DNA from: Cyanidioschyzon merolae
Taxonomy: Eukaryota
DNA: 64,000 nt
Assembly: GCA_000091205.1 (NCBI GenBank)
Contig: AP006501.2
Strand: one strand, 5' to 3'
Positions within the stretch are counted from its first letter, which is position 1. Every line of letters starts with the position of its first letter. Below are positions 1 to 45,899 of the stretch, piece by piece. The notes under the pieces were generated by a model. That model made no database searches and was not told the origin of the DNA. It saw only the letters and a program-made list of their open reading frames with translations. Position numbers and translations under genes: made by a program.

Positions 1-540
1 GCGAATACCCATACGCGTTCCCGCGTTTCGTCCAAAGCAAGCCCCATCGACTGAAAAAATAAATCGACGTTCATCTGCTTCATACCGAACGCGATATTCT
101 ATGAACGCTGTCGTTGCGAATTCCGTGGAATACGGCCGTCCGTGAACCACGACTTGTTTGCGACTGCATCCTAGTGTTTCCAGGGCCACACGAACAAGCT
201 GTTGAGAAGCAGAGACGTCCATGGCGGCTACCATCGTCACTTCTGCTTTCCGTAAAAGGTAAGCAACGGGCCATTTTCTACCATTGACCGCAAGCAGTGT
301 TTCAGATTGTCGTTTTTCGACGCTGAGCGCATTTCCTTGTTTCTTTCATTCATCTGATATCTGCGATATGACTGACCTGAGAACGCAACGCAGTCCTTCT
401 TGCACTGGTCAGTAAACAGTCTATCATACAGACAATTTGTCAACGATCTATTCGATACAATGCATCGTGATTTCGATCCCCTGCTCTACAATGCACCGGG
501 TTTGAAACAAAACCGAGCTGAATGACTTGAGCGATTCATA
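1..540 (-). mobile_element. Unclassified dispersed repeat (family R3), window-truncated copy
   Basis: The reverse complement of 1..540 aligns along its length, at about 75% nt identity, with 44455..45060 (+). Frameshifted ORF pieces on the minus strand (237..443, 80..274) resemble translations of 44383..45164. I recognise no domain. Confidence 0.55.
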
Positions 541-955
541 TCGGCAAGCGATCCACGTCGTGCGTCTGCGATCAACTCTAGCGCCTACTCGCTTTAGCGC
601 AAGGCTCGGTGTCGAGAGGCTTTAGTCGCGTACCTAAAGCGTCCGTGGATCGGACTCCTGTGAGAGGTTTTCTTGGACAAACAGTTCACTTGCAGCAGAG
701 CGTCGACGCTCTAGACGTTGTGGCTAGCGGAGCTAGGAGCGCTCGAGCGGGCCGTGATCGCTGCTCTGGCTAGCAGTAACTGTGACGCACTCGGCAGAGC
801 CCTGGGCAAACTCTTCGATCTCATACCATAGAGGAACTAGGGATTCAGAGGGCTCGCAAGAAACACTGAATACCAGCGATCTTTCAACAAGCGCCGATTG
901 GTGGCGGCTTGCGTACACACGCATAACCGAGCGCATAGCTTCCACAGCTTAACCC

Positions 956-3169
956 ATGGAACACGAAGCGAACTTGAACGATCTATCACTCGACGACAGG
1001 GGCAAACGAGAGCGTCCAGCACCTGAATCCGAAGCTCCACCCTACGTGAACCATCGGATCAGCTGCTGGGAACGTTTCCGCCAACACAAACAAGGCACAC
1101 TGCTGGGATCAAACGGCAGCAGCGACGAGATTTTGATCAAGCTACCCGATGGCACGAGTACTCGAGGCAAACGGTACGAGACCAGTCCCTGGGATGTGGC
1201 GCAGAGCCTGGGACGTGACCTTGCAGAGCGCTCGGTTGTGGCTCTGGTCGACGGGGAGCCCTGGGACATGAACCGACCGCTAGAGGCTGACTGCAGCGTC
1301 GACTTTCGCTCGTTCGATACTCCCGAGGGTCGAGCTGTGTTCTGGCATTCGACAGCGCACATGCTCGGAGAAGCGATGGAGTACAAATACCACGGTGAAC
1401 TATGCATAGGGCCTCCTGTTGAAGACGGTTTCTACTACGACATCTTTCTCGGTGAGCGAGCGATCACTCCGGAGGACCTCGCCGACCTGGAGCGAAGGAT
1501 TCAGCGCATCATGAAAGACAAGGGGCGTACCTTTGAACGCATGGAGCTCACCAAGAGTGAGGCGTTGGAAATGTTCGGCTACAATCGGTTCAAGTGCGAG
1601 CTCATCGAAAAACTGGGCGAAGGGGAAACAATCACTGCGTATCGCGATGGGCCTTTTATCGATCTATGCCGAGGGCCGCACGTCCCATCCTGCGGCCGTG
1701 TCAAGGCAGTGAAGCTCACCCGCCTCGGACAAGCGTACTGGCTGGGAAAGGCCCAAAACCCGTCGCTTCAACGAGTATACGGTATTTCTTTCCCCGACAA
1801 GCAGCAGCTGAAGGAATGGGAGCGACGGATAGAGGAGGCAGCCAAAAGAGACCACCGCAAAATCGGACGCGATCAGGAGCTGTTCTTTTTTCACCCGTAC
1901 AGCCCCGGAAGCTGTTTCTTTCTGCCACATGGGACACGCATCTACAATCGCTTGTTGGAATTTATGCGCCGCGAGTACTGGAATCGCGGCTATGAAGAGG
2001 TGCTTACCCCGACCGTCTTCGATTTTGCGCTGTGGGAGGCCAGCGGCCACGCGGCGAACTATCGCGAGAACATGTTCAGCTTCGAAGTCGAACAGAGAGC
2101 GTTCGGCCTCAAGCCCATGAATTGTCCTTCTCACTGTCTGATCTATGCGTCTCGTGTGCGATCGCATCGGGAGCTGCCGCTTCGCCTGGCCGACTTTGGT
2201 ATCCTGCATCGCAACGAACTGAGCGGAACCCTGACTGGTCTCACTCGTGTTCGCAAGTTCGAGCAGGACGATGCGCACATATTCTGTACGCCTGCACAGG
2301 TTGAATCAGAAGTTCTCGGTTTCCTGAAATTCCTCGAGCACGTCTACCAGATATTCGGCTTCAAATTTGAGCTCGAGCTCTCTACGCGACCAGAAAAATT
2401 CATGGGCGACCCAGCGCTCTGGGACCGAGCGGAGTCCATGCTTGCGCAGGCACTATGTCAGTTCACAGGCAAACAACGCGACGAACCTGGCGGCTGGCGC
2501 CTGAATCCCGGTGACGGTGCCTTCTATGGCCCCAAAATCGACATCAAACTCTTCGATGCGCTGCAGCGGCGACACCAGTGTGCTACCGTTCAACTGGATT
2601 TTCAGTTGCCAATTCGCTTTGATCTTCGTTACACGGCTGCGGGTGCCAGCACTGAGGACGGCAACGCGGCTGCAAGCGGACCGGTACTGGCACCAGTCGC
2701 GGAGCGCAGCCTCGACACCACCGATGCCACGCCCGAGGACGCCAAAGTCGTTCCCGCCTCGCACGACGTTCATCGGCCCGTGATGATTCACCGCGCGATT
2801 TTCGGCTCATTCGAGCGCTTCATCGCGATCATCACGGAGCACTATGGAGGAAAATGGCCGTTCTGGCTTTCACCGAGGCAGGTTGCTGTCCTGCCAGTGA
2901 GCGATCGATTTCTTCACTATGCGCAGCAGGTGCACCAGCGTATTCACGACGCAGGCTTCTTCGTGGACGTCGATAGCTCCGATCGCAAACTGGCGAAAAA
3001 GATTCGGGAAGCACAACTTGCCCAGTATAACTATATTCTTGTGGTCGGTGAAAAGGAGCAGGCCGACGGAACTGTGAATGTGAGAACACGGGACAATGAG
3101 GTTCACGGTGAGCGTACGATTGATCAAATCATTTCCGAGTTTCGCCAGTTGACAGAGCGATTCCAATAA
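956..3169 (+). CDS. Threonyl-tRNA synthetase (class II aaRS; TGS, editing, catalytic and anticodon-binding domains)
   Basis: Single 737-aa ORF. It has a TGS-like N-terminus (ILIKLPDGTS...), an HxxxH editing-domain motif (HSTAHMLGEAMEY), class II core motifs (RIYNRLLEF..., FGILHRNELSG, GAFYGPKIDI) and a C-terminal anticodon-binding region, with a low-complexity Ala/Asp-rich insertion. Confidence 0.9.
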   Translation: MEHEANLNDLSLDDRGKRERPAPESEAPPYVNHRISCWERFRQHKQGTLLGSNGSSDEILIKLPDGTSTRGKRYETSPWDVAQSLGRDLAERSVVALVDGEPWDMNRPLEADCSVDFRSFDTPEGRAVFWHSTAHMLGEAMEYKYHGELCIGPPVEDGFYYDIFLGERAITPEDLADLERRIQRIMKDKGRTFERMELTKSEALEMFGYNRFKCELIEKLGEGETITAYRDGPFIDLCRGPHVPSCGRVKAVKLTRLGQAYWLGKAQNPSLQRVYGISFPDKQQLKEWERRIEEAAKRDHRKIGRDQELFFFHPYSPGSCFFLPHGTRIYNRLLEFMRREYWNRGYEEVLTPTVFDFALWEASGHAANYRENMFSFEVEQRAFGLKPMNCPSHCLIYASRVRSHRELPLRLADFGILHRNELSGTLTGLTRVRKFEQDDAHIFCTPAQVESEVLGFLKFLEHVYQIFGFKFELELSTRPEKFMGDPALWDRAESMLAQALCQFTGKQRDEPGGWRLNPGDGAFYGPKIDIKLFDALQRRHQCATVQLDFQLPIRFDLRYTAAGASTEDGNAAASGPVLAPVAERSLDTTDATPEDAKVVPASHDVHRPVMIHRAIFGSFERFIAIITEHYGGKWPFWLSPRQVAVLPVSDRFLHYAQQVHQRIHDAGFFVDVDSSDRKLAKKIREAQLAQYNYILVVGEKEQADGTVNVRTRDNEVHGERTIDQIISEFRQLTERFQ

Positions 3170-3229: not shown

Positions 3230-3850
3230 CGGATCTAGCGACTCGAGCCGGTCTCGTGCATTGACGCGTTTCGAGTACCTAGAGACGATAGCGTGTGTGT
3301 CTGTACACCGATTTGCAGACGCCCCCCCCCCCCCCCGGGTTTTGCTCTAAGGGCCCCATGCCATCGGCTTTAGTTTCTTCTCGTGCACCTCGAGCCGGAG
3401 AGGATGTCCAACAAAGCTTGATCGCCTCAGCTCCTCGGGTCTTGTGTTCAGCACCGCACTTCTCCGGATATGGATCGCAGCGTTGAAGTCTCGGTTCACG
3501 AACTCCATGCATGTATTGCCGCTGTGGTTGAATTCACCAATGCAAGGGTTGATAGGACTCGTTCCCTCTGTACCAGTACAGTCTCGTCATCTACCCGTCA
3601 GGCAAACATCTTTTCTGACATATCTCCCCTCTTCGTATGCTCATTCTTCCTGCTCTTCTTCGCTTCATAGTCGACGAGAAGAGGATATTTTTGAAGCATC
3701 CAGCGATGATGACGGCCCTGCGGGATCCCCGACTTGCAAGTCCATACCTTTTCCTTGGATTTTATTTGCACTTTAAATCAACGCACTTGGAATGCACCTG
3801 CTGTAACTCATGAAACCGCTTTTGATACCAGGCACCTGGATATGGAACAC
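3230..3850 (-). mobile_element. Short internally deleted Fanzor/TnpB-like derivative (copy A)
   Basis: The minus strand encodes ...EFVNRDFNAAIHIRRSAVLNTRPEEL..., a RuvC-III-like motif, at about 3480..3530, preceded by a conserved 5' segment at 3700..3850. That segment is homologous at nt level to 27050..27125 and 38330..38400. The short ORF is frameshifted, and there is a poly-C(13) tract near the 3' tail. Confidence 0.6.
3325..3337. repeat. Homopolymer C(13)
   Basis: A direct run of 13 C residues. Confidence 0.95.
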
Positions 3851-4167
3851 CATCGAGTTGATAGCCTAGAATCGGGGAATGGATCTCAGGGCAGCCGCCG
3901 TCGCCGCCGCTGCCGCCGCTGCATCGATCCACTCTCAGCGCAGCGCAGCAGCAGGGCGATGCAGTGCTCATCTGCAACCTCCGAAAACGTCCTACAAGGT
4001 GTTGCGTGAAGTACACGAGCACCTGTTTATCCTGGGGAATTTTCGAGGCAATCGATAGGTGTTTCTTTTTGGGGGCGGCTGCTGCGGCGATCGCTTGCTT
4101 TTTCATAGCGAGCACGGAGAGGCAGGGCTTGTCATCGGAGGGTACCGCTTGCTCCGCCCCCGTCACA

Positions 4168-7066: not shown

Positions 7067-7245
7067 TTTTTTCATGGACAAGACGTTCACATAGGCCAGC
7101 GTTCTCCGATTATGCGCATTTTTCTTTTCTTACTTTTCTTGTGTGTTTTCTTTCAGTGCGCGGTGAGGTATCCATCAAACACCCGATCTCCAACGTACAT
7201 TACCGATACCTCTTCTCGGATATTCTGGTCGTTTCGTATCCGCAT
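7067..7245. repeat. About 180-bp dispersed repeat R, copy 1
   Basis: TTTTTTCATGGACAAGACGTTCACATAGGCCAG...CTCCGATTATGCGCATTTTTCTTTTCTT...CAGTGCGCGGT...TTCTCGGATATTCTGGTCGTTTC is shared with 56122..56305. A partial copy (TTCTCGGATATTCT) lies at about 26400..26450. Confidence 0.6.
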
Positions 7246-11200: not shown

Positions 11201-12124
11201 TCTTTTTCATTGACAAAACGTCTCCAACTGACGTGCAGGCGCCTCCCAGTCTTTTCGGACCGGCCACCCACTACTGCTTCCAAATTCTTCTCATATAGTT
11301 CCACTTTGAGAGGTTGTCCAACAAAGTTCTCCCGTGTCAGCTCTGGAGGTCTATTCTCCAGCACAGGACATCTCCGTATATTGATAGCGGCGTTAAAGTC
11401 TCGATTCACAAACTCCATACGCTTCTTGCCGTCATTGGTTGTACTCACTAATGCAAGGAGTCCACGAACGTTCGCCCTCCTTTTCATTTGCTCCTCCGTC
11501 AGCGGTCCGTACTTTGCTATTTCCTCAGCGCTCCGCTGACACGTTTCCATCCCCACTCGCTGAAGTGTACATCCCAGTTCATGGTGTGTATACGATGTTC
11601 GAAACTCATCTATCGGTATCGTAACGAAACGCCGTGCACACTCCTTGTACGTTCTTGTCGTCGGAGCTGGCGTAGTTTTTTTTGGGTCTTCCAACACCCT
11701 GCCCTATACGCTACTGAGAGCCTCTGACTTTCATCCTCTATGAGGGCACTCAACTGATTGAAAAAGTTGGCAAACGCCCGCTGGTTACCACAATACAGAT
11801 TCATTCGCAAACGAGCCCATCTGGGCTTTGTATACTCCTCCGGCAGCGCATCCCAATGGGCAAAACGAACTTCCATGAATTTCCGGAAAGCTTCAAAGTC
11901 CGCTCCTCGGCTGGTCACCTCGCTCAAAGCTTCCAGGTGATCCTTCATTCCTGAATTCTACGTACAAATTTTCTTCCTCGCATTCATTATACCGGATTCT
12001 CGATTGTATCTCGCTCTCGAGAACCTCAAAAGGCGCATGTCTTTCTGACGTAAGTTGCCGTCAGTACCATCTTCCGCACGCTGCGGTGCTGCGATGGTGA
12101 TGATATTTGTGTTTCCGGGGTCAG

Positions 12125-12430
12125 CGCCAACGACAAAGTCGTTCTCATGCACTTTCTGCACCGCAGGACCCGCCTCCTTCTTTTCTTCATGCTTCGCCGC
12201 GTCAACCATAAAGTCGTTATTCTCCATCTCCTGCGCCGAAGGATCCGCCTTCTTCTCATCTTCATCCTTCGCCACGTCAACGACAAGGTCGTTATCCTCC
12301 ACCTCCTGCGTAGCAGGATGCTCCTCTTTGTTTTCTTCATCCTTCGTCACGTCAACGACAAACTCGGTATCCTCCACCTCCTGCATCACAGGATCCTCCT
12401 CTTTGTTTTCTTCATCCTTCGTGACGGGCG
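12125..12430. repeat. 96-bp tandem repeat (about 3.2 units) inside copy B coding region
   Basis: The unit tcttcatccttcgccacgtcaacgacaaggtcgttatcctccacctcctgc...ctcctctttgttttc is repeated. On the minus strand it encodes repeated [20 protein letters not shown] units ending in the RuvC-I motif [10 protein letters not shown]. Confidence 0.8.
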
Positions 12431-14559
12431 CGGCCGAGGGCGGGACTGGCCCATCTGTCTTCAACCGCCGGTGGTGTACACACATGGCTACCCCATCGAT
12501 TTCGATCAACCTAGTGAATACCTTTTGTTTTGCTCGAATTGAGAAGTTTGAAATCGAAGATATTCCCCCAGTACGTCTCACGGTTTTCACCGGGGAACTC
12601 TGTCTTCCTTACACCGAACTCCGGACTGATCTGCCTCATGATGCCGTGAAGGACTGCGGAGTCGATAGTCACAAAATGTGACTTGATGTTGCACAACGGA
12701 ACCACGTTGAAGCGCTTCCCCATTAGGGCAGCCCTCCGTCTCTACCACTCTTCATTTGTCTCTTCACTCAGCTTCATCTCTGCCTTGTGTTCGAGCTCTC
12801 GGTCGAGAAACACAAAATATCGCAGGAGGAGGCGATAGTATCTTTCCTTGTCTTTTTTTCAACTCTGATATCTTGTCTGTTGGATTCGCCAGCCCCAGTA
12901 CCGCACGATGCTCTTGTTTAGCCACACGGATTACAGAAGCTTCATTCGTGCTCTCGTTTGGCGCCTTCTTATCGACGAATTCGACCTCATCTTCATGCTT
13001 GCGATCGTCCGTGATGCCGTTGGTAATCGCCCGTACGCCTTTGCGATAGATGGCCCGGTACGGCGCACACACGGCGCGTATCATGAAACGTTCGAGGCTC
13101 ATCGTCAATTGGTTCTCCAGGTTCGTGAGGTACTTCATCGCCCCGTATGTGTAAATATTTCCGTCACCGCTGTATCGATTATCCTCGAAGCTGTAAAAGG
13201 GATGTTTTTCATGGAGGGCATCCACTAGCACATTTTCCTTCCGCGCTTCTGCTGTACCAAGCATCAGCTGTCGAATAAAGGTCTTGTCCAAGAAATCGTC
13301 CGGAATCTCGACCGTTTCAATATGCGCCACGTCTTCGTACATCTGCCTCGCCAAATGCATCACTCCTGACGACGCCTTGACAATGCTCTTGGAGTACTAG
13401 TCGACAAGTTTTTCGATAGCGTCTCGCAACTTTTCCGTGTACGGATTCTTGATATGTTTAAGAAGACCAGCTTTCACCACCATCTCGTCGTACAGTCGTC
13501 TTTCTTGCCGCCTTCGACGTAGGGCCTCCCGTTTTCGGTTCCTCTTCTCTTCTTTTTCTTCTGGACTCGGCACTGTTTTTTGTTTTTTTTCTAGCAGCCG
13601 GCGACCCTGGGCCTCCAGGATCGTGGACTTGCTTTTTCAAGACTTTCCTTTTCTAGTTTTTTTGGAAAAGAACGCTCCTTGAACCCTTCTGTTATACGCT
13701 ACGAAAAACACTTGACTAGACTTGTTTGAGGGTTGAAACACAAATGAACTGAAAACTTTATTTTTGTTCGAATCCTACGCGAATACAACTTTTACAGCTG
13801 AACATCACGCTAGAGATCAGGATCGCGTTTTCCTTCAACGGCGGCATGCGCATCCTGTCTCATGCTTGCCTGATCTCCCAGGAACGCTCATTTAGCGCAC
13901 TGCGTGCACCGCGCGAGACGCCTCACCGATCGATGAAGGACACGTGTCCGACACCCCGCCTTGGCACATGCGTGTTCGCATCGCGCTGGAGCGAAAATCA
14001 AGTGTCCTAGATCGTGAACTCACGTAGAACGATCTCTTGCTGTAGGCTCTGTCGCTGGTGCCGACGCTACTGCCCATCGCAGTACCGTCCTGACATACAA
14101 GGGGATGCAGGGGCCTGGTACGATACCCGTCGACGCGTCTATCAAACGCGTAGCGTTCTCTGCGGCTTACGCTTGTGCGGATGAGATATGCATCACTCTA
14201 CTCATTAGAAATTTCGTTACATTTATTGATCGTAAACAAACAAGGTACGGTAGTGTTCCCCAACACGGATACAAGTTTATTTCATTTGCTTGTTATACAT
14301 GCCGCACGGACGCTGGAATAAGGAACTAACCTGAATTTTGCTTCCACCCGGCGTCACGGGCTGGAACTGATGGCGCTTCAAGTCATTTCCATGCTGCTGT
14401 CGTTGTTCAACTTATGGTGCCTGCATCGTCCTCCGGATCCGGTGATCTTGGCCGAGGCATACCACACATATAGCGTCCAGATCTGCCACGACGTTTGAAC
14501 ATTGCATCTCGCCTGGCATGATCGACACGCTTGAGAAAAGCGCATACTGTATTCTGGTC

Positions 14560-15100
14560 TACTCTATCAGATTATATACAATTGCCTAACCCGTACATCG
14601 ACGACCGCAGACCAACAACAAACGCCTTCCAAAAGAAAAACGTTTTCGCCAGCCGTGTACAGTAGTGGCGCTCTGCGCGCCCCAGACGAAACGTCTCAAT
14701 CTACCAGTCCGCAGACGCCTCTCAGGCTTTGTTGAACGGCCGACTGGTATCGATCTCAGCTTCTCCTTGTACAATTCGAGACTGGGAGGCTGTCCCACAC
14801 CAAAGTTGACATGCCACAGCGCCACGGATCTCGTCTTCAGAACCGCACATCCCCTGATATTGCTAGCAGTGTTAAAGTCTCGGTTAACAAACACCATGCG
14901 TTTATTGCCTCTTCTTGAACTTGTCCATGCAAGGAGTCGTCGAAGTCATGCCCTCACTGCCATTTAGTGCTCTATCAGCTCTCCGTGCTTTTCTGTCGCC
15001 GAAGCGCCCCGCTGGCTCTTCTCTATCTCATTCTTCTGAAGTGTACACCCGGGCTCATCCCTTGATTTTTCAAAATGAAGAAACTTGTTTATATCTTTAA
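14560..15100 (-). mobile_element. Fanzor/TnpB-like 3' fragment (copy C)
   Basis: Minus-strand ORF 14586..14897 encodes MVFVNRDFNTASNIRGCAVLKTR...GQPPSLELYKEKLRSIPVGRSTKPERRL...ATTVHGWRKRF. The upstream antisense ORF 14915..15100 parallels 11439..11624 and 29152..29337 (zinc-finger region). The copy is 5'-truncated. Confidence 0.6.
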
Positions 15101-16009
15101 GTTGGAACCCTCCCGGAGGGATAAGCACTTGCGGGGAAAACATGACATGAGCCCCGTAATGTCACCGTGTGCTGAACGTTTCAGCGATTCGCCCCGCAGA
15201 CAAAGGACTGCTTTGCGGTACCTCTACAGACGTTGAATGCACGAGTGCGTGCATGCTTTGCATCGCCCCACGTCGCCCTAGAACCAGACCCCAGTTCAAG
15301 GCTCCCGACAGCGGCAGCGAACGGAACACTAGCCTGCTCAATCCTTGAACAGTTCGCATGCTTTGTTCTGCAAATGTTCAGGTTGAATCGCACGCGAGAA
15401 AAGCAGACCTCATTGGGTCCCAGGGTAGCCTGTGGTTGTCACCGATTTTGCAGATGATCGGACTGATCACGCACGAAGCGCAGCGGCACGGTGCGCATCA
15501 TGATCCATGGTGCGATACACCTCGCCATCATGTCGTCGGTCCGCATCGAACGACTCTGAACGAGTCTAGATGCTTGCTAGCGTTTCTTGCGTACAGCTGC
15601 CGACAGGACGAGTCATCGTGTTTCCCGCGCGTGCATGGCTAGACCTGCGTAGCGGTGCCTCTATCAAAGATGGTATCAGAACGGCGTAAGAGCGCACGAT
15701 TGTTCTCAGGCGCTAGACCGGAGTCCAAGTACGATGCGTTGCTGCGGCCTTCAGACATGTGCAGTCCTGAACCGTCATCGTAACGTCTACGAAAGCATCT
15801 CAAACGACCGAATCATGTTTGGTAGTCCATGCTTTGGCATCGCCTTCGACAATATGCTTCGTTTCTAGGTTCTAGGTACGCGCTGCATTACGCACAGCTG
15901 CATCCGCTTCTGCTGCGAAAACATGCAGTGCCGTGAACGCGTCGCGGTGCACCGCAACCTGCGTCCCGTGCCTCATCCAACAGATCCTGTGTTTCCTCGT
16001 GCTCATCAC

Positions 16010-24323: not shown

Positions 24324-26591
24324 TCACACGAACCCACGCAGCGACAAGAAACACAGGGCGGTGAGCGCGGCGGATACCGGAACGGTAACAAACCAACTAA
24401 GGAGAATGTTCAGCAGGACACGGCGATTCACGGAGCCACGACCCGTCGCCAGTCCCATCGCCACAATGGATCCAATGAGCGTGTGTGTTGTCGACACGGG
24501 CATGCCGATCTGCGTGGCCATGAGCACCGTCAACGCTGTGGATAGCTCGACACAAAAGCCTCTCGTCGGTACAAGGTGCGTGATCTTCTTGCCTACAGTG
24601 TCCATCACGGGACGTCCCCAGACGCCGAGTCCGAACGAGATTCCGAGTCCTCCAAGAACCAGCGCCCACGGCGGTACCAGTACTTCACCGGAGACCGCAG
24701 CGCTGCCGCCACTGCGATACACCGCTAAGATGCTCGCAAAGGGACCGATGGCATTCGAGACATCATTGGACCCGTGGCTGAAACTCACAAAACACGCCGT
24801 AAGCAGCTGAAGAATCGAGAACACCTGTTCAATAATGTCATGCTGACGCTTCCGAGCATACGTTGTCAGACTCAAAGACGTTGACGACATCACGATATCC
24901 ATGGTCGTTGGCACGTATTCACAGGTTGGCAAGAGCTGGATATCCTCACTCCAGTGCGCTCCTGACGAATACTCATCTTCATTTGTGCTCTCCTCGTTCG
25001 CTTGAAGCGCACCGAATGCGGCTAGCGCGACTGCGGCGGCCTCACTGGCGTCAATTTTACGCCCATTGCCGCGAATATTCTCCCGTGGGATGCTTCTCCG
25101 CACAAACTGTTTGCTGTGGATGAAGCTCGTCAGAGCGCCGGAAACTCCAGCCCCCAGCGCAGCCACACCGAAGGAGCTCGCAACAGCCTGAAACAATGTC
25201 CATCCTGTCGAATGCTCACTCTCCAGTTGCAAGAATAGAGTCAGGATGAAGAGCATCGAGCCGCACAACGTCGGCAGCCAGCGACGCATCGCTCGAGTCG
25301 GACGCGGCGCATCGATGATCGTTTGCCGGATGAACCGGAATAGCAGCCATGCCACAACGCCGCCCATCAACGGCGAAATGATCCAGCTCAGAACGATACG
25401 TAGAACTGCTTCCCACTGGATTTTCCAGCCAGAAATCATGCCGAGGCCAATAAGTGAGCCCACAACCGAGTGTGTCGATGACACTGGCAAGCCGTAGCGA
25501 GTAGCTAGACCCAGCCACATGGTGCATCCCACTAACACACAGAGCATTCCCAACATGTAGAGAGATGGCGAAGTTGCAACAGCACCAGATATGGACACTA
25601 CTCCTGTAGATATGGTCTTGGTGACTGTCGAACCAAATAGGACAGCACCAGCGAACTCGCAAACAGCGCCTATGGCAAGCGCCTTGCCAATAGATACCGC
25701 CCCGGTTCCTACTGATGTGCCAAGGGCATTGGCCACGTCATTTGCTCCAAGCGCTGCAGAGAGTAAGAACGCTATGCAAAGCGATAAGCAAACAAGCACA
25801 AAAGGCGACAAAATGTGACCGGATAGAGTACCGGCAGCTGCACTGGCAGCATCCGCCACAAGCGAGGCGTTTAAACGGAAACCACGCTGCGTCGTCTGCC
25901 GCGGTGCGGTCCAGCGAGCACGTTCCCGCAACGACTCTCGCACTCGCAGCCATGTCGGTGACAATTGAGCTGCTCTGATACCATAATTTCTACAAGAAAA
26001 GCACGAAATGGAAGAACGATGAGCGCGAGTCGACCCCGAAAGCTCGCTCCTAACTGCAAGGCGACCAGGATGCACAGGCAAACAAAGCGCCCTCTGAGCT
26101 GGTCCACTGACCACGTATGCCAGGTGAGGCGGTCGCCCGCCGCATTTACCCGGTCTCATGGACACCTGTAAGCGCCTATAGTTACCGCAAACGTCACGAA
26201 TCGCGCCTAGGCCCCTTTGGTGACACACAGCCAAACGCTTGTCCTTTTGCACGGAGCACGCACGAGACACGCATGTATGCACGCAAGCACTGCACGCACG
26301 CACGCACGCACGCACTGCGCGCAGGACGCTCGTACCACTGCCTGACGCTTTGGGTGGCGCTCGATTCGCGCGCGATGAGGCACCCATCGTTCCATCTACT
26401 TCCAAGTTCCATAACCCATACTTCTTCTCGGATATTCTTGTTGCTTCACGTCTTGTTTTGTGCAGCGAGTGCTTGCAGTGAGCTCCCACGATAGCACCTA
26501 TATCATCGGTGCGGTCGTTGCACAGAAGCAGGACGGGTTTGTCGTACCACAGATGGCGTCGGCACGAGCGGGTAGACTGATACCCACGCAC
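24324..26591 (-). CDS. PiT-family (PHO4) sodium/phosphate symporter; N-terminal boundary uncertain
   Basis: Both PiT signature repeats are present (GANDVANALGTSVG and GSNDVSNAIGPFA), with multiple TM segments. The first roughly 190 aa of the ORF are not transporter-like, so the true start or an intron is unresolved. Confidence 0.8.
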   Translation of the reverse strand: MRGYQSTRSCRRHLWYDKPVLLLCNDRTDDIGAIVGAHCKHSLHKTRREATRISEKKYGLWNLEVDGTMGASSRANRAPPKASGSGTSVLRAVRACVRACSACVHTCVSRACSVQKDKRLAVCHQRGLGAIRDVCGNYRRLQVSMRPGKCGGRPPHLAYVVSGPAQRALCLPVHPGRLAVRSELSGSTRAHRSSISCFSCRNYGIRAAQLSPTWLRVRESLRERARWTAPRQTTQRGFRLNASLVADAASAAAGTLSGHILSPFVLVCLSLCIAFLLSAALGANDVANALGTSVGTGAVSIGKALAIGAVCEFAGAVLFGSTVTKTISTGVVSISGAVATSPSLYMLGMLCVLVGCTMWLGLATRYGLPVSSTHSVVGSLIGLGMISGWKIQWEAVLRIVLSWIISPLMGGVVAWLLFRFIRQTIIDAPRPTRAMRRWLPTLCGSMLFILTLFLQLESEHSTGWTLFQAVASSFGVAALGAGVSGALTSFIHSKQFVRRSIPRENIRGNGRKIDASEAAAVALAAFGALQANEESTNEDEYSSGAHWSEDIQLLPTCEYVPTTMDIVMSSTSLSLTTYARKRQHDIIEQVFSILQLLTACFVSFSHGSNDVSNAIGPFASILAVYRSGGSAAVSGEVLVPPWALVLGGLGISFGLGVWGRPVMDTVGKKITHLVPTRGFCVELSTALTVLMATQIGMPVSTTHTLIGSIVAMGLATGRGSVNRRVLLNILLSWFVTVPVSAALTALCFLSLRGFV
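26292..26316. repeat. (GCAC)6 microsatellite
   Basis: Direct read of gcacgcacgcacgcacgcacgcac. Confidence 0.9.
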
Positions 26592-27125
26592 AGGCGCCTC
26601 GCAGTGTTTTTTGACCGGCCCTCTGCTATCGGTAGTAATGCTTGTCCGTGCACGTTTCGAGTCTGAGAGTCTGTCCCATTAAGTAAGATGGCCTAATTTC
26701 GTCAGCACTCGTCTTCATCCCCACACATCGTCTGATATTCATGGCGGTGGTGACGTCTCGGTTCACGAACGCTATTCGTGCATTGACACTGATTGAACGC
26801 ACCAATGCAATGATTGCTAGAACTCGCGTACCCAGCGCCACTGACGCCTTGTTGTCGCCCCATTCTACAAATACCTTTTCTCGTGTCTTGCCCTTCTTCT
26901 ACTTTTCATCGTCATTTGCGCTTCTTCGGTCTATTGTCGGTGGGAAGAGGCTTTTTTCGTTTTCTTCCTGCAACCGGCGATGGTGGCCCTCCTGGATCCC
27001 CGACTACCATGTGCGTACGTTTTCCTTGGATTTTTTTTGTTTCATCAAATGAAGACACTTCGAATGCATCCGCTATACACCGCGAAAAAGCATTTGATGA
27101 CATACACATTGACCTGGAACTCCAT
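26570..27125 (-). mobile_element. Short internally deleted Fanzor/TnpB-like derivative (copy D)
   Basis: Minus-strand ORF 26912..27109 encodes the 5' region MCMSSNAFSRCIADAFEVSSFDE...GDPGGPPSPVAGRKRKKPLP (NLS-like). Downstream ORF 26626..26841 encodes FVNRDVTTAMNIRRC...QTLRLETCTDKH (RuvC-III + tail). Both are homologous to copies A, B and F, and the middle of the gene is missing. Confidence 0.6.
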
Positions 27126-27801
27126 TTATGTGAAGGACTGTAATGATGGCGCTGTCGTGGCGAACGCTTTGCTTGACTATGCGATGCGCAGCGTCAGCAT
27201 GCTCACCGGTACGTCATCGACCGCCGTAGCAGTGGCTGCTGTATCAGAGCGTCCTGGAAACAACAAGGCGCTTCTGCTGGCCTCGTTCTCGAGCCGCATT
27301 TTGTGTCCCGGACGTATGGTGCCTGCAAGCAACAGTCGTTTACGTTGAGACTATCTGCCCATAGATGCCGACTGTCTAGACTCAAAGCTCGGCTAGGGCG
27401 CAAGTCCCATGAAACTCGCTGCTCTCTTGCGCCTTGTCCTCTTTGCGAGGCGCTGGATTGCCAGTCGCCGTCGTTCCACACTCAATTACAAGCGTCTCGA
27501 ATGATGCGGGCAAGCGCTACGACTCAAATGGACTACAGTTCCGTAACTGGGTGACTCGCATGCCGGTATTCGACACGCGTTAGATACAGGTGCTCAGGGA
27601 TGCCCCGAGCATGACCCCTTCAATACATCACGTGACGAATGCATTGAAGAAGAATTCTTTCGATTATTCCCCAGTAGACATGAGCATGTCGTCTCCAGCC
27701 GAACCTTTCGCTCACTCACCATTTGCTCCGATGCAATTCACGTCATGCTCGGATGTGTATATGCATTCCAGCACATGTCCAATTCGTGGCGTTATTAGAT
27801 T

Positions 27802-28838: not shown

Positions 28839-29640
28839 TTGCAAATCGGTTGCGTCTTCCAGCAACGACACCGCCAGGCCTGTGTCTGGAATCAATTTTG
28901 GGGCAGGGAGTGCGCACATCAGGCTGGCCGCGTCCACCCGCCACACCTGGACCCGTGCCGCGGTATGCGAAAGAATCTGGACTGTGGGAGGCAGCGTGCA
29001 TTCGTCAACTTTTTCAATCAGTTGAGCGCCTTGAAGGAGGATCAAAGTCAGAGGCTCGTAGTAGCGTACGGAGCAGGGCGCTGGAAGACCCATAAAGGGA
29101 CGAGGCCAGCTCCAACGACAAGAATGTATGAGGCGTGCACACGGCGTTTCGTTACGATACCGATAGATGAGTTCCGAATATCCTATACACACCATGAACT
29201 GGGATGCACACTTCAGAGGGTCGAGATGGAAACGTGCCAACGGAGCCCTGAGGATATAAAAAAGCACGGACCGCTGACGGAAGAGCAAATGGAAAGGAGG
29301 GCGAAAGTTCGTGGACAACTTGCACTAGTGAGTACAACCTATGATAGTAAGAAACGTATGGAGTTCGTGAATCGTGACTTTAATCCTGCTATCAATATAA
29401 GGAAATGTGCGGTGCTGGAGACGAGACCTCCAGAGTAGACAAGACAGAATTTTACTGGACAACCTCTCAAGATTGAACCATATGAGAAAAAGTTTGAAGC
29501 AGTAGTGAGTGGCCGGTCGAAAAAGGCCGGGAAGCGTCTGTACGTCAGTTGGAGCCTTCTCGTCCAGGGCGGGTTTTTCGCCACTACTGTATACCGCTGG
29601 CGACGTTCGACTTTAGAACGGCGTTTACTTTTGGTGAAAT
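28839..29640 (+). mobile_element. Fanzor/TnpB-like 3' half (copy E), single frame through RuvC-II..RuvC-III
   Basis: ORF 28839..29438 encodes ...NFFNQLSALKEDQSQRLVVAYGAGRWKTHKG...RMYEACTRRFVTIPIDEFRISYTHHELGCTLQRVEMETCQR...KKRMEFVNRDFNPAINIRKCAVLETRPPE. After a stop the tail continues ([34 protein letters not shown]...[10 protein letters not shown]). It fills the divergent intergenic region between the MDR gene and NDUFS8. Confidence 0.65.
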
Positions 29641-32146: not shown

Positions 32147-34987
32147 GACTTGTGTATAGGGAAACAGTCCTTGGTGTATACATCATGTGCTACGGCCCTG
32201 CCGCATCGCTGAATCTTTCGATATGAATGCTTTATCCAGATGAGAATCCAATGATCTTTCTCATGGCCAGTGAGTTTTCATCAAGAATCTGTAGCATTTC
32301 AGCACCAAGCAGCAGTGAGTGCGAAACGATATCCTCGAAAACATCGCCGGTGACGTCCTTTCCATGGTCTGAAAGCATGAGATGGTTCCCAGTATTGATC
32401 GAGGAGTTCGTGCCTCGGTAAAGGAAAGTGATGGCGCGCAATGTTGCTGGTGGAATCATCCTATAGCAAGCACATCATCTTCGATTTCGACGCCATCTAA
32501 AGTTTGCTCTGGTTACCCTACACCAGCCTGTACATGCCTCTCTGTTTCTCCACCGGTTTGACGACGAACGTTTGCTCTTTATGGGTGTGGCTCTTCCTAA
32601 ACGCATCGATAGGAAACCTGCAGAATCCATTCCAGCGTTCGTCGTACGCTGTCGTCGAAGGAGCGCATGTTCAGAGGTTGCGCACGACAGCACGCCCAGC
32701 GCCCGAGGCTAACAATACAATGCGATGCTTGTCGTCTGTCGTTCCCGTTCCCAGCTTATTGAACGGGTTGGTTAACGCACGAGCCCTGCGCCGTGCAACG
32801 GAAACCATTGGCGACACCAATACGTTCTTACGATCGTTCGTCAGATATCACCCGTATGCGCCATTTGGACGCTCCTATACCCTCTCCGAATGAAGAGTAC
32901 CAGGCATTCCCCTGCTTGATGCAATCCTCAGATGGCTGGTACATATGCGGCCGCGGTCATACAATCTGTACCCGCACCTCCTGGCGTCCGTGATACCCGG
33001 CTCTTGATACCAACCAGCCTTTAAATATGCAGAACCGCTTCATCTGTCTTCCGTCCAGTTTTTTGATTCCGCTCTCTTGATTTGGAGGTACCGCATCAGC
33101 TAATACGCAATGAAACAAGGGATGCGAGCACACAAACCAGTCTCGCTCTTCATCTACTTTGACAGTCGAAAATGCTTCTCGTTGCTCGACAAAGGCTGAG
33201 GTTTCATAACGGGCATGCGGATGCGTATTCCGCTGGTCACAGTCATTCCTGAAAACTTGTTTCTAATTCCTCCAGGCAACTGAAAAACCTTGAACGAGCT
33301 CCGCTTCTGCCCAACTCGACGTTCAACGATTCCTATGTACTTGCTCGCAGAGACGGGCAATAGCTCACTGAGGAGACCATGCATAACAAAAGCGTCCGCG
33401 GTGGTAGGTCTTGATCTTGAATACGAGTGTTCTATAGAGTAGACGCTTCAGAAGGCGAGCGCGCTCGGATTCCAGAAGCGGACCCCGTTTGCTCTAGAGT
33501 TCTCTGTTCTGAAACATGTATTAGCGAGAGACGAATGCAAGGTCGGCAGTTGTCAAGTTTCAACGAATGTTTTAGATACGACATCCATCGGTGCACGGCC
33601 GAGAGCAACACAGCGGGCTTGGATGATCAGAGGCGACTATCTCACTCTCGTTACGACGTCCTTTCCGACCCTGTTACAGAGTCGATTTCTTCCGTCATCA
33701 ACGGCTGGCTATTTGGTGGCATCAGCACCTCAGGACTGTAGTTTCCAAGTCCGCACTTTTCTAGGCCAGTGCGGAGAGCGTGCAGAACCCGCAGTACGCG
33801 CTTCAAGGAACGTTCGAGATCGATCCTCATATGGTGATGGAGGTTGATTTGATACTTTTGGCACCTGCGTTGGGCATATGACGATCGCAGATGTGGCACG
33901 GGAACGCGTCAAACCATACTGAAAAGCGCCTCTGCAAATCTCTGATACTGCGATCAGGCCGTATTCCAGCCTCTGTGCGGAACATCAGCAGCGTCTTCAC
34001 ACCAAGGTCTGACTGAGAAGTTCTGGGGGAATGCGGACAGCTGCCCGCCCCACGTCCGAAACTCATACAAAAATCAGCTTCTCGAGATGCTTCAAGGCGT
34101 GAGAAGCTGGGCGAGGCCTCTGTGGGTAATAAGACGCGTGATCAACAATGCCATGCCGCATATAGCGTTGTCCCGAATGCGAACGACTCGTCAATGGATC
34201 CGTGAACGTCGAAATGACGTCTGGCAACGAATGACAGTTTTGAATGCATTGAACCAAGCAGAATAGGCTCGCAGCCGCGTCCACCTTGACAGTTTGGGAG
34301 GCATGGAAAGCGACGTCTTCTAGCGGCAGGACAGAAGAATGTGGGCGGTAGACGCCAAGAAGAGTGCTTCGAGGAAGCATGAGGTGTTGCGCGATCCTGT
34401 ACATCTGGTGAGTTTTAGGCTAACGCATGATATAAATCACGCCCCGGCTGATGTTATCGTCTTTATCACTTGTCGCTGCTTTACAAATAGCAGTTTGGAA
34501 CCCGTTGAGCACCCAAATACACGTCTCCCATCTGTCTCGAACAAAGTCTCATCGAACGAGACGAATACCCGTCAATCATGGGTGAAGCTTTCGGATCTCA
34601 ATACGATATCGAGTTTAGATTATCCAACGCACGACAGCCTCCCGTAGACGCGTACCCGTTTCTTTCATCATCCTCGTCTCTTCGCCAACGCTCGTATCAA
34701 AGGTGCGAAAACCTCAAATCCTGTCGCGTCTTGCATAGTATTTCATAAAGAGCACATGGTTTCGGATGGAAACGTGTCGAGATAGTCCTGGAGATGGCGT
34801 TGGATAAGCTCCGTGTATGGTAAAGGTCGTTCAGGATTGGGACAACGAGACCGGCGGTTCATCCGCCTGGTCACTCCTGAATAACAGATTTGTACCATTG
34901 ACGTCTTTTCTTTCGCAATACAGAACTGAGGGCATGAAATGTTCCCGCGACATTTCTCCAACCTATGGGGTACAATCCGTTTATTGA

Positions 34988-37001: not shown

Positions 37002-37808
37002 ATGGGTCAGTGTGTAAGTGGCGCTTACAATCATGAAGACGACAGCTTCGTATCCATGAGGCAGCTCCTGGAGCGATACGGGAAGTATCTCTACGAGGCA
37101 CGGCCGGATCCCACTATTCAGGATATTGTGTTGTTCTGCAAAGTTTGTAAAGTTCTACCCAGTTTGAGAATAATCTTTGAAATCCCCGTAAGCACTGGGA
37201 GAGACGTTTGGACACAAGAGACATCAAAGTCGTTTTCTGGAAGGCCACGACGAAGACGTGCACTGGCAGATGAGGAAACCGAGGTATGGATAGATGAAAA
37301 CGAGCACGTCGAGACTTGTACCCGGCCCGGAGGAAAAAGCGCACGACTCTCCTTCGATTCGAACCACGCAAACAACACACCGTTGTTCCGTCGCGTGCGG
37401 GCAGAGCTTCGTGGTCTCTGCTTCGAGGCGCGTACAAGCTGGGTGGCCACGCAGATGCATCACGTCCTGACGCAATTGCTTCCTTCTCAGATGATGGCAC
37501 AGCTATGGATCTCAGCATACAAATTAGATGGATCTGTGGTTGCGGACGTTCTCAGGCTCGAAGACCGATTGCATATAAACAGAACGCTGCTCGTTACTGG
37601 TTGGGGATGCCTGCACCCCAGTATGCGAAAAGAACGAATTCTGGAGGAGCTCGAAGGATATGCGAGGCGGCATCGATGCGGAATCTGGGCGTTCCCGAAA
37701 GAGACGAAATCGTTCAACAGCACGCCCCGCAAGCACGTCCCCAGATCACGTTGTCGATCCCTAGCAGAAAGTCAGCATCGAGCACATTTATACGCATGTG
37801 AGCAATAA
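37002..37808 (+). CDS. Hypothetical protein with N-myristoylation-type start (MGQCVS)
   Basis: 268-aa ORF. The N-terminal MGxxxS motif is seen directly. The C-terminal GIWAFPKE weakly resembles the SNase-like C-terminus (GLWA). Confidence 0.35.
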   Translation: MGQCVSGAYNHEDDSFVSMRQLLERYGKYLYEARPDPTIQDIVLFCKVCKVLPSLRIIFEIPVSTGRDVWTQETSKSFSGRPRRRRALADEETEVWIDENEHVETCTRPGGKSARLSFDSNHANNTPLFRRVRAELRGLCFEARTSWVATQMHHVLTQLLPSQMMAQLWISAYKLDGSVVADVLRLEDRLHINRTLLVTGWGCLHPSMRKERILEELEGYARRHRCGIWAFPKETKSFNSTPRKHVPRSRCRSLAESQHRAHLYACEQ

Positions 37809-37849
37809 AACGAGAATCGTTCTACAACTATGCAGGGTAAACATATATG

Positions 37850-38405
37850 TATCCATTCACAGACATCTCCCAGCCTATTTTGAACAAGCGCATGCTACCG
37901 GTTTCAGTGTTTATCCATGCAGATTTCGAGCCTGAGAGGCTGCTCCACAAAGTGAGATCGCGTCAGCACCTCGGATCTCGTCGTCAGCATCGCATATCGT
38001 TTGATATTGATTGCGGAATTGAAGTCTCGGGCCACGACCTTCATGCGTTTATCACCTTTGCTGGAACCCATCCATCCTACGATTCCTGTAACTCACACCC
38101 TCTGTGCCACTACAGTCTCGTCATCGCCCCATCGATCAGATATCTTTTCTCATCTATCTCCGTTTGGTTCTTCTTCCTCTTGTTCTTCGTTATTTGCACC
38201 TCTATGTTCGACGTTTGGCGCCAAGATGTATTTTCAGGTTTTTTCCCGGGAAACCGGCGATGATGACCCTCCTGGATCCCTGACTACCATGTCCATGTCT
38301 TTTGCTTGGATTTTTTACTTGCTCAAATGAACGCACTTCGAATGCATCAGCTACAAACCGCGAAAAAGCATTTGATGACATGCACCTGGATGTGGAATGC
38401 ATTTG
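37850..38405 (-). mobile_element. Short internally deleted Fanzor/TnpB-like derivative (copy F)
   Basis: Minus-strand ORF 38202..38402 encodes MHSTSRCMSSNAFSRFVADAFEVRSFEQVKNP.... Further down, the minus strand encodes ARDFNSAINIKRYAMLTTRSEVLTRSHFVEQPLRLEICMDKH (RuvC-III + tail). It is close to copy D and lies directly 5' of ALG14. Confidence 0.6.
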
Positions 38406-38485
38406 GCGTCTCTGAGCATGTAATACGATCTTTGTCTGGGATTTGTTGGCGGCCTTTACCCCTGCTTGGGGCTGCCAAGCCGAGT

Positions 38486-44454: not shown

Positions 44455-45300
44455 GATTCGCTTCTTCTAGTAGTCCAACGCAATCTTTTTCCGCCGGCGA
44501 TGCGGTGTCTACCACGAGATGGACATCACGTTGCAATGTACCGTATAGATCGTAGACGAGTTTCCTACAGTATATACTATGTACTGAGCATTGCAAGGAG
44601 GACGACACTCCTATTGAAGGTCGGTAGTACCACACAAGTCAGATGGTTGAGGAACACCGAAAGAAACGAGTACATGGGTTGCGCGTCAAAAACCGATATT
44701 CTCAAAGACTGCTTGGAGTCAATGGTAAAAAAGGACCCATTGATCATCATACGGAAAGAAAACGCAACGAGGCACACCACGGGCGTCTCTGTTTCTTTAC
44801 TGCTAGTTCGTGTGGTCGTGAAAACACGGAGGTACAGTCGCAAAAAATATTCTGTTTCACGCACGGCTATCTTGCACCGAAATCGCAACAACAGCGTTCC
44901 TGGAAAGTCACGATTGGTATGAAGCACAGGAACGTCGATTTGTTTCCCCAGTCGATGAGAGTTGCTCCGGATGAAACGATCGGAGCGCGAACGGGTATAC
45001 GCGGACATGGAGGCCCGCAGAATGTGCGGTCCAAGTCGAAGAGAGCGACGACATCATCTGTGCTGGCGGGAGTGGAGTCGTTTGGCGGCCTCAGTTTCGC
45101 TCGTACAGAAGGCTCATACATCGGCTCCAGCCACTTTGTCGAATCATTCAAGGCTTTTCCCTGACATCAGGCGACGTCCCTCTATTGGCCAACCTGGTAT
45201 TTCAGCATTCCCCTTGCAGTCCAGCTTTTGCCGATTCTATCAGGTTAGAGCTGCTTTTCATTTCTGCACACTCTCTGAGGTCCAAACGCATCCACGGAAT
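44455..45300 (+). mobile_element. Unclassified dispersed repeat (family R3), second copy
   Basis: Homologous at nt level to the reverse complement of 1..540. Overlapping ORFs 44383..44922 and 44643..45164 encode ...YMGCASKTDILKDCLESMVKKDPL... and ...HHGRLCFFTASSCGRENTEVQSQ..., which parallel the window-start copy. Confidence 0.55.
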
Positions 45301-45379
45301 GTTTTCTGTCGTGTAACGTAACGATCGCTCCACCGTGCGGATCGCTGAAATGTTCAGCCCACGGTGACACCAGGGCGAA

Positions 45380-45872
45380 TGTCGTCTCTATTTCGCAAGT
45401 CCAGTTTGCGCCGGAAGGGTTCTCTCCTAACGGCATGAACCAATGCGTTCATTTCCAAGAAATAAGGAATGAGCTGGGCTGTATACTCCAAAATGTCGAG
45501 ATGGAGGGAAGGTAGCCGACCGCTGCGGCGATAGAAAACCATGGAGAGCTGATAGAGCACCAAATGGCCCAGAGGGCGCGAATTCGCGGACTGCTTACAT
45601 TGACGAATTCAAGAACAGACAATAAACGCATGGAACTCTTGAACCGAGACTTTCAAGGCGCTATCAATATCAGACGATGTGCGGTGTTGAAGACAAGACC
45701 CGAGGATCTGACGCAATCCATTTTCTTGCGGGGCCAGCCTTTCAGGGTCGAAGTGTACAAGGAGAAGCTGAGACCGATCGCAGAGGGTCGGTCAAGAAAG
45801 GCTCGAAGGCGTGTCCAGGTGGGTAGCTATGTTTACCCTCCATGGCTGGGAAGCTTTTTTTTGTTGCAGTGA
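45380..45872 (+). mobile_element. Fanzor/TnpB-like 3' fragment (copy G)
   Basis: Encodes ...NELGCILQNVEMEGR... (zinc-finger region), then MAQRARIRGLLTLTNSRTDNKRMELLNRDFQGAINIRRCAVLKTRPEDL...GQPFRVEVYKEKLRPIAEGRSRKARRR. Confidence 0.6.
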
Positions 45873-45899
45873 ACGTCTTCTGTAGAACGCCAAGAAACG

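Follow-up and report, generated by a model that had tools for sequence, protein, structure and literature searches.

Short, internally deleted derivatives of the Fanzor1 family CMe-1 in Cyanidioschyzon merolae

Three short Fanzor1-related units

The stretch of DNA analysed here (the window) comprises 64,000 nucleotides (nt) of contig AP006501.2 from the red alga Cyanidioschyzon merolae (assembly GCA_000091205.1); its sequence is 55% G+C and intron-poor. It holds three related units of about 0.6 kb, designated A, D and F and all on the minus strand, which consist of the beginning and the end of a Fanzor1 (TnpB-family) gene joined together. The reference for comparison is CMe-1A, the one Fanzor1 family described in C. 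merolae (3169 bp, ~150 copies, ~80% identity to the consensus; Bao & Jurka 2013, Mob DNA 4:12, PMC3627910), whose consensus we took, together with the CMe-1 protein, from supplementary file 2 of that paper. Short units that stand alone are termed sub1. The three in the window are laid out as follows.

3255..3872, minus strand: copy A, a complete short (sub1) element (homology to ~3872; core 3255-3864)
~3713-3872, minus strand: copy A, 5′ module (equivalent to CMe-1A 788-~969)
~3550-3712, minus strand: copy A, K/E-rich remnant and deletion junction
3305-3546, minus strand: copy A, Fanzor tail, with RuvC-III as NRDFNAAIHI
3255-3304, minus strand: copy A, short-type 3′ end and terminal hairpin
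26570..27136, minus strand: copy D, a short (sub1) element; N-terminal open reading frame (ORF) remnant of 65 aa (26912-27109); tail ~26656-26829
37799..38414, minus strand: copy F, a complete short (sub1) element; 5′ module ~38231-38414; tail ~37922-38119; hairpin ~37799-37840

When the window was compared with itself by BLASTN, A and D were 67% identical over 520 nt (E 2.7e-33), A and F 67% over 487 nt (E 8e-40) and D and F 69.6% over 562 nt (E 2e-59), and in an alignment the three are collinear from end to end. In the orientation of the element, each starts ~20-45 nt 5′ of an ATG, continues with an N-terminal remnant, MSSNAFSR(F/C)(V/I)ADAFEV.SF..DPGGP..KRKK, and a K/E-rich stretch, and then runs straight into ..LALV..KRMEFVNRDFNAAINIRRC..PLRLE.. 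and a non-coding end. Each unit therefore represents the 5′ untranslated region (UTR) and first ~50 codons of the gene fused to its last ~90 codons, which include RuvC-III, and the 3′ non-coding end. This direct joining of a 5′ module to the RuvC-III/tail module had been pointed out in a first-pass annotation of the window, and the peptides quoted there are indeed present on the minus strand; its limits were right for the start of D, which extends to 27136, and slightly short on the 3′ side of A and F (by ~50 nt in F).

Copy D reads MCMSSNAFSRCIADAFEVSSF..DPGGPPSPVAGRKRKK and, after a gap of ~90 nt, ..FVNRDVTTAMNIRRC..LRLETCTDKH. Both modules of D are present in F, with frameshifts, and A is more degenerate on its 5′ side. 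The last ~45 nt of D, including the terminal hairpin, are gone, and its 3′ end abuts a fragment resembling TE-N2_CMe, another element of this genome that is considered below. With only the N-terminal ~50 and C-terminal ~90 codons, interrupted by stops and frameshifts, A, D and F do not encode a nuclease with all three RuvC motifs. Consistent with this anatomy, tblastn searches with two full-length relatives (P0001 and P0020) match the three units at the N-terminus and residues ~693-752 only, and match copy B, a long element in the same window, over all residues.

Metagenome data were scanned with a tail alignment of four close sequences, yielding 80 partly redundant loci (~0.9 Mb) of the same species. 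The threonyl-tRNA synthetase gene of the window (956-3169) is unchanged on hot-spring metagenome contigs of the JGI that are 99.4-99.7% identical to the window. When the window and these ~0.9 Mb were searched with nhmmer, a profile built from A, D and F gave 22 full-length matches, which reduce to 16 distinct insertions with contiguous 5′ and 3′ modules, 13 of them additional to A, D and F. Eleven of the 16 stand alone (sub1, including A, D and F), with lengths of 565-616 bp and boundaries that agree within a few bases, whilst their flanks (300 nt on each side, n=11) share no mutual similarity. The remaining five (sub2) form the 3′ parts of ~1.45-kb elements, in which a ~950-nt non-Fanzor sequence, module X, precedes the short unit. 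Neither random fragment boundaries nor a separation of the two modules in other copies was found. The short units are a discrete family at unrelated sites and so have multiplied without coding capacity of their own; with a common junction and unrelated flanks, the proposal that they are ORF-less internal-deletion derivatives of a Fanzor element, multiplied without a protein of their own, is borne out.

Copy A is also found on five of the same-species contigs (L001-L003, L005 and L009). It contains a poly-G run (3321-3338; a poly-G/C run at ~4380-4400 in L001, L002 and L003) at the place where the family has GGTCAAAAAAGGCTGGGAGG, and the length of the unit varies by up to 9 nt among near-identical metagenome strains, possibly at this run.

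Parent family and origin

The window contains further members and fragments of the CMe-1 group, in addition to pieces of TE-N2_CMe.

11212..13887, minus strand: copy B, a long CMe-1A-type Fanzor1 (CMe-1A 671-3107, 84-90% identity); a pseudogene with frameshifts and stops
28963..29623, plus strand: copy E, a CMe-1A copy truncated at the 5′ end (2506-3169, 87%)
14623..15192, minus strand: copy C, 5′-truncated with a long-type 3′ end; CMe-1A 2737-3169 at 14623-15058, 72%
32539..32790, minus strand: isolated internal Fanzor1 fragment (aa ~596-665 of P0001) with neither 5′ nor 3′ module
44510..45870, plus strand: copy G, ~1.35 kb, consisting of ~950-nt module X, Fanzor tail (from CMe-1A 2737) and short-type 3′ end
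1..478, minus strand: copy H (partial), the module-X part of a G-like element whose tail lies outside the window (L001 274-1523)
26393..26568, plus strand: TE-N2_CMe-like fragment (CMe-1A 82-255, 72%), abutting D and unrelated to A, D and F

Read through its frameshifts, copy B translates to a protein of ~800 aa that includes the RuvC-III motif NRDFNAAINI. No match to Pfam or PHROGs was obtained with the ORFs of the window or their close relatives, so the identity of the protein was established with a wider profile. An exhaustive profile search recovered 1405 relatives, and the published CMe-1 protein belongs to the same family. In 45 aligned family sequences the RuvC triad, examined in the motifs GxDPG, DEFRT(S/T) and RDxNAAxNI, is invariant (D484, E656 and D725 in P0001 numbering). 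The 45-member profile matches Fanzor1 structures in the PDB (PpFz1 9cf0, E 2.7e-20; SpuFz1 8gkh, E 4.4e-11; GtFz1 9cer, E 2.3e-6). At the site of the C4 zinc ribbon (TNB/OrfB_Zn_ribbon), between RuvC-II and RuvC-III, CMe-1 reads ..THHELGC..MEKC.., which is not the canonical CxxC..CxxC; one distant relative matches PF07282 at E 0.0023, below the cut-off, and the window ORFs and close relatives have no Pfam match. AlphaFold2 run on a 15-sequence alignment reached a pLDDT (predicted local distance difference test score) of 31, too low for use. The parent of the short units is thus a genuine Fanzor1 element of the known CMe-1 family, to which B and E belong (84-90% and 87% identity to the consensus, respectively); as published for the family, B and E lack terminal inverted repeats (TIRs) and detectable target site duplications (TSDs). 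Among 27 distinct long copies in the sample no ORF is intact, and the longest measures 600 aa.

The relation of the short units to CMe-1A is close over two segments only. Single copies (A, D and F) match it there at 70-77%, and the sub1 consensus aligns to CMe-1A 788-969 (79%) and 2840-3084 (80%), with weaker similarity back to ~2777. In CMe-1A the segment missing from the short units is flanked by GAGATGG at ~1047-1053 (between ..YDEM and VV..) and again at ~2777-2783 (between ..VEM and EKC..). At the join, the sequence of the short units is GGAGATAG. A single deletion of ~1.73 kb between these 7-nt repeats is a plausible origin, in which the exact breakpoints and the role of microhomology would follow from the aligned sequences. 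A splicing origin of the deletion was ruled out, GT-AG borders being impossible at this junction. The first-pass annotation had put the two modules about 1.8 kb apart in copy B; the distance in B is in fact ~2.0-2.2 kb, and it is ~1.73 kb in consensus coordinates, the excess in B being due to its extra 75-nt tandem repeats. There are three of these repeats in B (12124-12426); they encode acidic units rich in KDEE, placed between RuvC-I and the REC-like region, and their number differs among long copies, which explains the 2.0-2.4 kb length differences of the latter.

The ends of the short units also differ from those of the long elements. The latter start ~130 nt further upstream (GCGCACCTGGGAGATC.., CMe-1A ~655), with 34 long copies beginning at model position ~2, whereas the 5′ homology of the stand-alone short copies begins at position ~125-135 in nine of 11 and at 107 and 148 in the other two; CMe-1A 655-787, the 5′ end of the long element, is absent. 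At the other end, GGGAGGCGTCTGC is followed in the short units by GGGTA..TACCC and, last, GGTCGTGAAACG-TTTA-TCGTTTCACTGACC, and the long family closes with ..TGGAGACG..GGGCGCG..CGCCACTAC..CGTCGTTCGACTTTCGAACGGCG, so that the last ~60 nt differ. With ~130 nt absent at the 5′ end and a different 3′ terminus, the short units do not keep both ends of a B-type element, as had been supposed. B itself has low-complexity repeats of 20-30 nt (CGCATTCGTGCGTGCGCGCG.., 11065-11187) in place of its last ~60 nt. In more than 50 long copies (for example L044 4479 and L016 10262) the CMe-1A 3′ end as published (..GAAAGGCG) is followed by 8-9 nt of semi-conserved sequence rich in G and T (TTTGTTGT, GTGGTG.., TTGATGG), which would mean either that the element extends slightly, by a few bases, past its Repbase consensus or that there is a preference in target or flank.

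The substitutions in the shared tail set the short units apart from the subfamily of B. The short and long consensuses differ at 57 of 233 tail sites, which are diagnostic, the short tail consensus being ~24% diverged from CMe-1A, and the short copies share an extra deletion of ~18 nt after EK... In leave-one-out comparisons all 16 short copies were nearer the short consensus (73-84%) than the long one (58-77%), and all 27 long copies were nearer the long consensus than the short. The short-consensus tail is an open frame of 78 codons with a coding-type substitution pattern relative to the long consensus (dN/dS, the ratio of nonsynonymous to synonymous divergence, 0.18; dS 0.88). Since this divergence is coding-like, the founder came from a Fanzor1 sublineage that was long under protein constraint, separately from CMe-1A. 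On these comparisons the short units descend from a diverged sublineage and not, as first suggested, from copy B's subfamily, and A, D and F form a subfamily related to, and separate from, CMe-1A. The best long-copy match to the short tail is L084, a divergent copy (77% to CMe-1A) that encodes P0020 and whose 3′ end resembles those of A and L054.

The family is old. Mean pairwise identity among sub1 units is 64%, and 77% to their consensus; the 5′ UTR-like, N-terminal and tail segments have diverged to a similar extent, and the 3′ end is the least conserved (51% pairwise). This pattern marks a single ancient burst and subsequent neutral decay, and the short units now look like gene-less neutral relics, neither active nor bearing guide RNAs. 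Recent activity of a D/F subfamily, which had been suggested, is not supported by these values: D and F have an identity of 66% in the alignment of the family and 70% in the BLAST comparison, and the closest pair is A and L054 (69%). D and F have in common a 2-nt insertion that gives the ..DKH reading and may be sisters; RLE.C.DK is the consensus motif of the whole short family.

Mobilisation signals and the 3′ end

The structure of a miniature inverted-repeat transposable element (MITE), which the first-pass annotation had proposed, is not supported, both TIRs and TSDs being at chance. When the first 45 nt were compared with the last 70 nt in inverted orientation, the best match was at chance in ten of ten copies, and at inconsistent positions. 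For TSDs of 2-6 nt, no signal above mismatched-pair controls was seen in ten copies (offsets of -12 to +7 nt at the 5′ end and -8 to +11 nt at the 3′ end), the power of this test being limited by the age of the copies. An asymmetric terminal inverted repeat (ATIR) of the Helitron2 type was likewise not found above chance in a per-copy test, which an 11/15 inverted match of the 5′ terminus with a hairpin arm, noticed by eye, also failed. No target motif was evident in the flanks, and the boundaries of the short units showed no preference for TTTT/T and no T-rich 5′ flanks.

The group as a whole offers a different clue. Identical start points recur at different loci among 5′-truncated CMe-1A copies (CMe-1A 2093, ~2237, 2665 and 2737), which implies that truncated forms were themselves amplified. 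Loci with shared starts include L073 552, L072 903 and L049 560, and L067 3551, L082 5400 and L069 3596. CMe-1-group elements can have module X or TE-N2 in place of their 5′ part, and the last ~330 nt are kept by all CMe-1 derivatives. Because the same tail occurs in several derivative families whose 5′ parts are truncated or exchanged, movement seems to depend mainly on the 3′ end, which appears to be the key cis element. Judged from these sequences, mobilisation was probably in trans and by a mechanism initiated or terminated at the 3′ end; rolling-circle movement, by analogy, is possible.

Several observations accompany this pattern. Module X lies at 44510-45465 (G) and 1-478 (H) in the window and at L076 8197-9160, L064 7631-8586, L067 5959-5012 and L045 4990-3669; it is fused upstream of the Fanzor tail alone (G, H and L045) or of a complete short unit (sub2), and never occurs alone in the sample. 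By eye the upstream region of sub2 had seemed to resemble the 5′ end of a long element, a likeness that is not significant; the region is module X, as in G and H. Upstream of its CMe-1A part, copy C has another ~130 nt in common with G and H. A 3′-end fragment of CMe-1A recurs ~740-850 nt upstream of long copies, 96 nt in length at L004 5802-5895, L065 796-891, L044 923-1018 and L023 1234-1329; in the window, the 436 nt of CMe-1A 3′ end in copy C (14623-15058) sit 747 nt upstream of B. This recurrent order of 3′ end, spacer and element suggests copying in tandem or by read-through. Directly after copy G (45842-46087, plus strand), and also at 17083-17589 and 35276-35785 (plus strand) and 45956-45999, there is a second repeat family whose C-terminus looks like that of TnpB/Fanzor (..YSRLCMKCVRGIRKAQDRNFNAAVNVLRLL..); it is not matched by the CMe-1 profile, nor does Pfam match it.

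The guide scaffolds of TnpB and Fanzor systems run from the 3′ end of the ORF through the right end of the element, with the guide beginning at the boundary. For Fz1 they are short stem-loops adjoining the guide (PMC11423790). The short unit ends in two stem-loops, of which the terminal one has a 13-bp stem: 70.8% of its cells pair, against 34-55% in slid controls, and ten of its 13 pairs change on both sides. Its covariation is modest (0.347 vs 0.281, a value reached by 19 of 500 shuffles), and its mismatches favour G:U over A:C, 29 to 15, an excess that hints at pairing on the sense strand. The terminal hairpin of the long family occurs in two variants, CGTCGTTCGA/TCGAACGGCG and AACGTTTTTC/GAAAGGCGTT, in which both arms differ and pairing is kept; its two internal stem-loops are invariant and thus uninformative on covariation.

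Folding of the aligned 3′ modules, proposed in the first-pass annotation as a route to an omegaRNA, gave little beyond this weakly covarying terminal hairpin. RNAalifold found no consensus structure in the short tails (295 columns, -0.4 kcal/mol, at most 3-4 consensus pairs), a weak fold in the long tails that misses the expected hairpins (311 columns, -16 kcal/mol) and at most 3-4 consensus pairs in the long 3′ ends. Folding z-scores for the whole 3′ end are weak (sense -1.0, antisense -0.7), and Rfam has no match in the window. By its position, an omegaRNA role for the short units would be reasonable, by analogy with TnpB and Fanzor systems, though the folding results do not support it; a hairpin at the end of a transposon is equally expected as a signal at the DNA level.

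Interpretation and comparison with known systems

We consider it likely, with a probability of roughly 0.72 for the reading as a whole, that A, D and F belong to an old, inert and non-autonomous subfamily of the CMe-1 group that arose from one deleted founder, spread and then decayed. The founder would have been a full-length element of a diverged Fanzor1 sublineage. A single internal deletion of ~1.7 kb between GAGATGG repeats, together with loss of the first ~130 nt, would have brought the 5′ UTR and the first ~50 codons up against the C-terminal ~90 codons, which are followed by non-coding 3′ sequence closing in a stem-loop. The resulting ~0.6-kb unit would then have been copied to many unlinked sites by the machinery that moved CMe-1, leaving neither TIRs nor TSDs, and the copies would have decayed neutrally thereafter. 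In this scheme the Fanzor1 identity of the parent, the common junction, the discrete boundaries, the single origin, the age and the lack of TIRs and TSDs are demonstrated by the sequences, whereas deletion through microhomology, movement in trans and the central role of the 3′ end are inferences.

Several points weigh against this scheme. The deletion breakpoints are read from consensuses that are ~20% diverged, and the GAGATGG microhomology, though plausible, is not exact. No full-length element with the exact short-type 3′ end is present in the sample, L084 and L073 being partial 3′ matches only, and no cis signal is shown to be common to the short units and an extant long element. No TSD, target motif, empty site or transposase was found (RepHel was not searched for), so that we infer transposition only from dispersed copies with unrelated flanks. 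Finally, the 80 loci were picked by a match to the tail and are a biased and redundant sample, from which copy numbers cannot be read as genome-wide.

Two alternatives do without the amplification of a short element or derive it from RNA. Each short unit might be a separate full-length insertion that later lost the same segment through GAGATGG, with no short element ever mobilised; the 7-nt direct repeat does flank the deleted segment in the CMe-1A consensus, and other internal deletions of different size exist (L010 and L027). We regard this as highly improbable, since all copies share the same 5′ boundary (CMe-1A ~788), the alternative 3′ end, the ~18-nt deletion and 57 diagnostic substitutions, and none of the 27 long copies is a full-length member of that lineage; the units have a single origin. 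It is just as hard to credit that the unit is the cDNA of a processed Fanzor transcript, its 5′ boundary marking the start of transcription and the deletion an intron. In the long element that boundary does fall within the 5′ UTR, ~117 nt before the ATG, and 5′ truncation is frequent in the family. However, a poly(A) tail and TSDs are absent, cuts within the GAGATGG repeat of the consensus give at best GT..TG and never GT..AG, and ~60 nt of structured non-coding 3′ end are kept.

Other alternatives concern what moved or maintained the units. They could be non-autonomous rolling-circle elements of the Helitron2 type, a suggestion by analogy that concerns the mobilising machinery only and is compatible with descent from one deleted founder. 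The absence of TIRs and TSDs, the 3′-terminal hairpin, the 3′ excess, the 5′ truncations, internal deletions and variable 5′ modules, and the 3′-end fragments upstream of long copies all match the behaviour described for Fanzor1 elements carried by Helitron2. An asymmetric inverted repeat was at chance, however, the 5′ flanks show no preference for TTTT/T, and Bao & Jurka left the family unclassified, and we think this identity unlikely. For ORF-less IS200/IS605 derivatives in bacteria, RNA-guided homing or retention has been proposed. By analogy, the short units may have been kept for an omegaRNA-like transcript of the tail and 3′ end, loaded by Fanzor1 in trans and leading to RNA-guided homing or retention. 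The region retained is where TnpB and Fanzor guide scaffolds lie, and of the two 3′ stem-loops the terminal one pairs above controls, with modest covariation and an excess of G:U. Against this, there is no RNAalifold consensus structure in short or long tails and no Rfam match, the internal stem-loops of the long family are uninformative, no intact ORF occurs in 27 distinct long copies, and divergence is uniform over the segments with the 3′ end least conserved (51%), as neutral decay predicts; the idea strikes us as distinctly unlikely. A broader version, in which all tail-bearing derivatives, the short units among them, were ORF-less carriers of Fanzor1 guide RNA that protected or re-homed themselves through the Fanzor1 of full-length copies, would be more speculative still and is improbable. 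If it were true, the retained tail, 3′ stem-loops and flank would make up a functional omegaRNA gene, and the 3′-centred amplification would reflect that dependence.

By itself the deletion described here is an expected product of transposon decay, and the copies are too old for activity. What is new is the short sub1 subfamily; CMe-1A and TE-N2_CMe were already known. The CMe-1 group can be seen as a natural deletion series comprising stand-alone short units, module X joined to the tail, and 5′-truncated classes, and the ~330 nt common to all of them suggest that the cis-acting core lies in the 3′ tail and its terminal stem-loop. This narrows the search for a C. merolae omegaRNA and transposition signal, in a tractable, intron-poor model alga, and bears on the role of Fanzor1 in eukaryotic transposons and on what moves TIR-less families such as CMe-1.

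Among known elements, CMe-1A itself is the nearest, sharing with the short units the 5′ UTR/N-terminal piece and the tail at ~80%. From it the short units differ in their last ~60 nt and in the absence both of 1.7 kb of the ORF and of CMe-1A 1-787, which comprises the TE-N2 part together with ~130 nt at the start of the Fanzor part. TE-N2_CMe, a 635-bp element identical to the 5′ 635 bp of CMe-1A (Bao & Jurka 2013, PMC3627910), is also short, TIR-less, non-coding and associated with Fanzor1 elements in the same genome, but contains no Fanzor-derived sequence and has no similarity to A, D and F. It was ruled out as their identity, as they do not match CMe-1A 1-787 and only the flank of D does. 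Pieces resembling it lie at 7188-7238, 26393-26568 and 56241-56694. Two of the 11 stand-alone short units adjoin TE-N2_CMe near its position ~255, namely D (on its truncated 3′ side) and L060 (on the 5′ side), and this adjacency may mark a hotspot of recombination or insertion.

Like MITEs, the short units are non-coding, shorter than 0.7 kb, multi-copy, discretely bounded and derived by internal deletion from a larger element; unlike MITEs, they lack TIRs, TSDs and the parental 5′ terminus. A published survey of MITEs reported none for C. merolae (PMC3964958). Frequent 5′ truncation, internal deletions and an over-abundance of 3′ ends have been described for the Fanzor1 elements carried by Helitron2 in Chlamydomonas, whilst CMe-1A was reported to have no TIRs, with TSDs undetermined, and was left unclassified (Bao & Jurka 2013, PMC3627910). 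The CMe-1 group shows the same pattern as these Chlamydomonas reinhardtii elements (CRe-1/2/3), and a 3′ subterminal hairpin as in Helitron2 is present in both the short type and the long family. CRe-1/2/3, however, have Helitron2 ends (ATIRs, hairpins at both ends and insertion after TTTT) and a RepHel partner, whereas here neither an ATIR nor a T-rich 5′ flank was found. A further analogy may be with the palindrome-associated transposable elements (PATEs) of bacteria, ORF-less IS200/IS605 derivatives that retain subterminal hairpins and the left and right ends recognised by a known TnpA. PATEs and the short units would both be gene-less derivatives of TnpB-family elements that keep the guide-bearing right end, close in hairpins and lack TIRs and TSDs. 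In PATEs both ends are kept, whereas the 5′ end of the short units is not the parental one.

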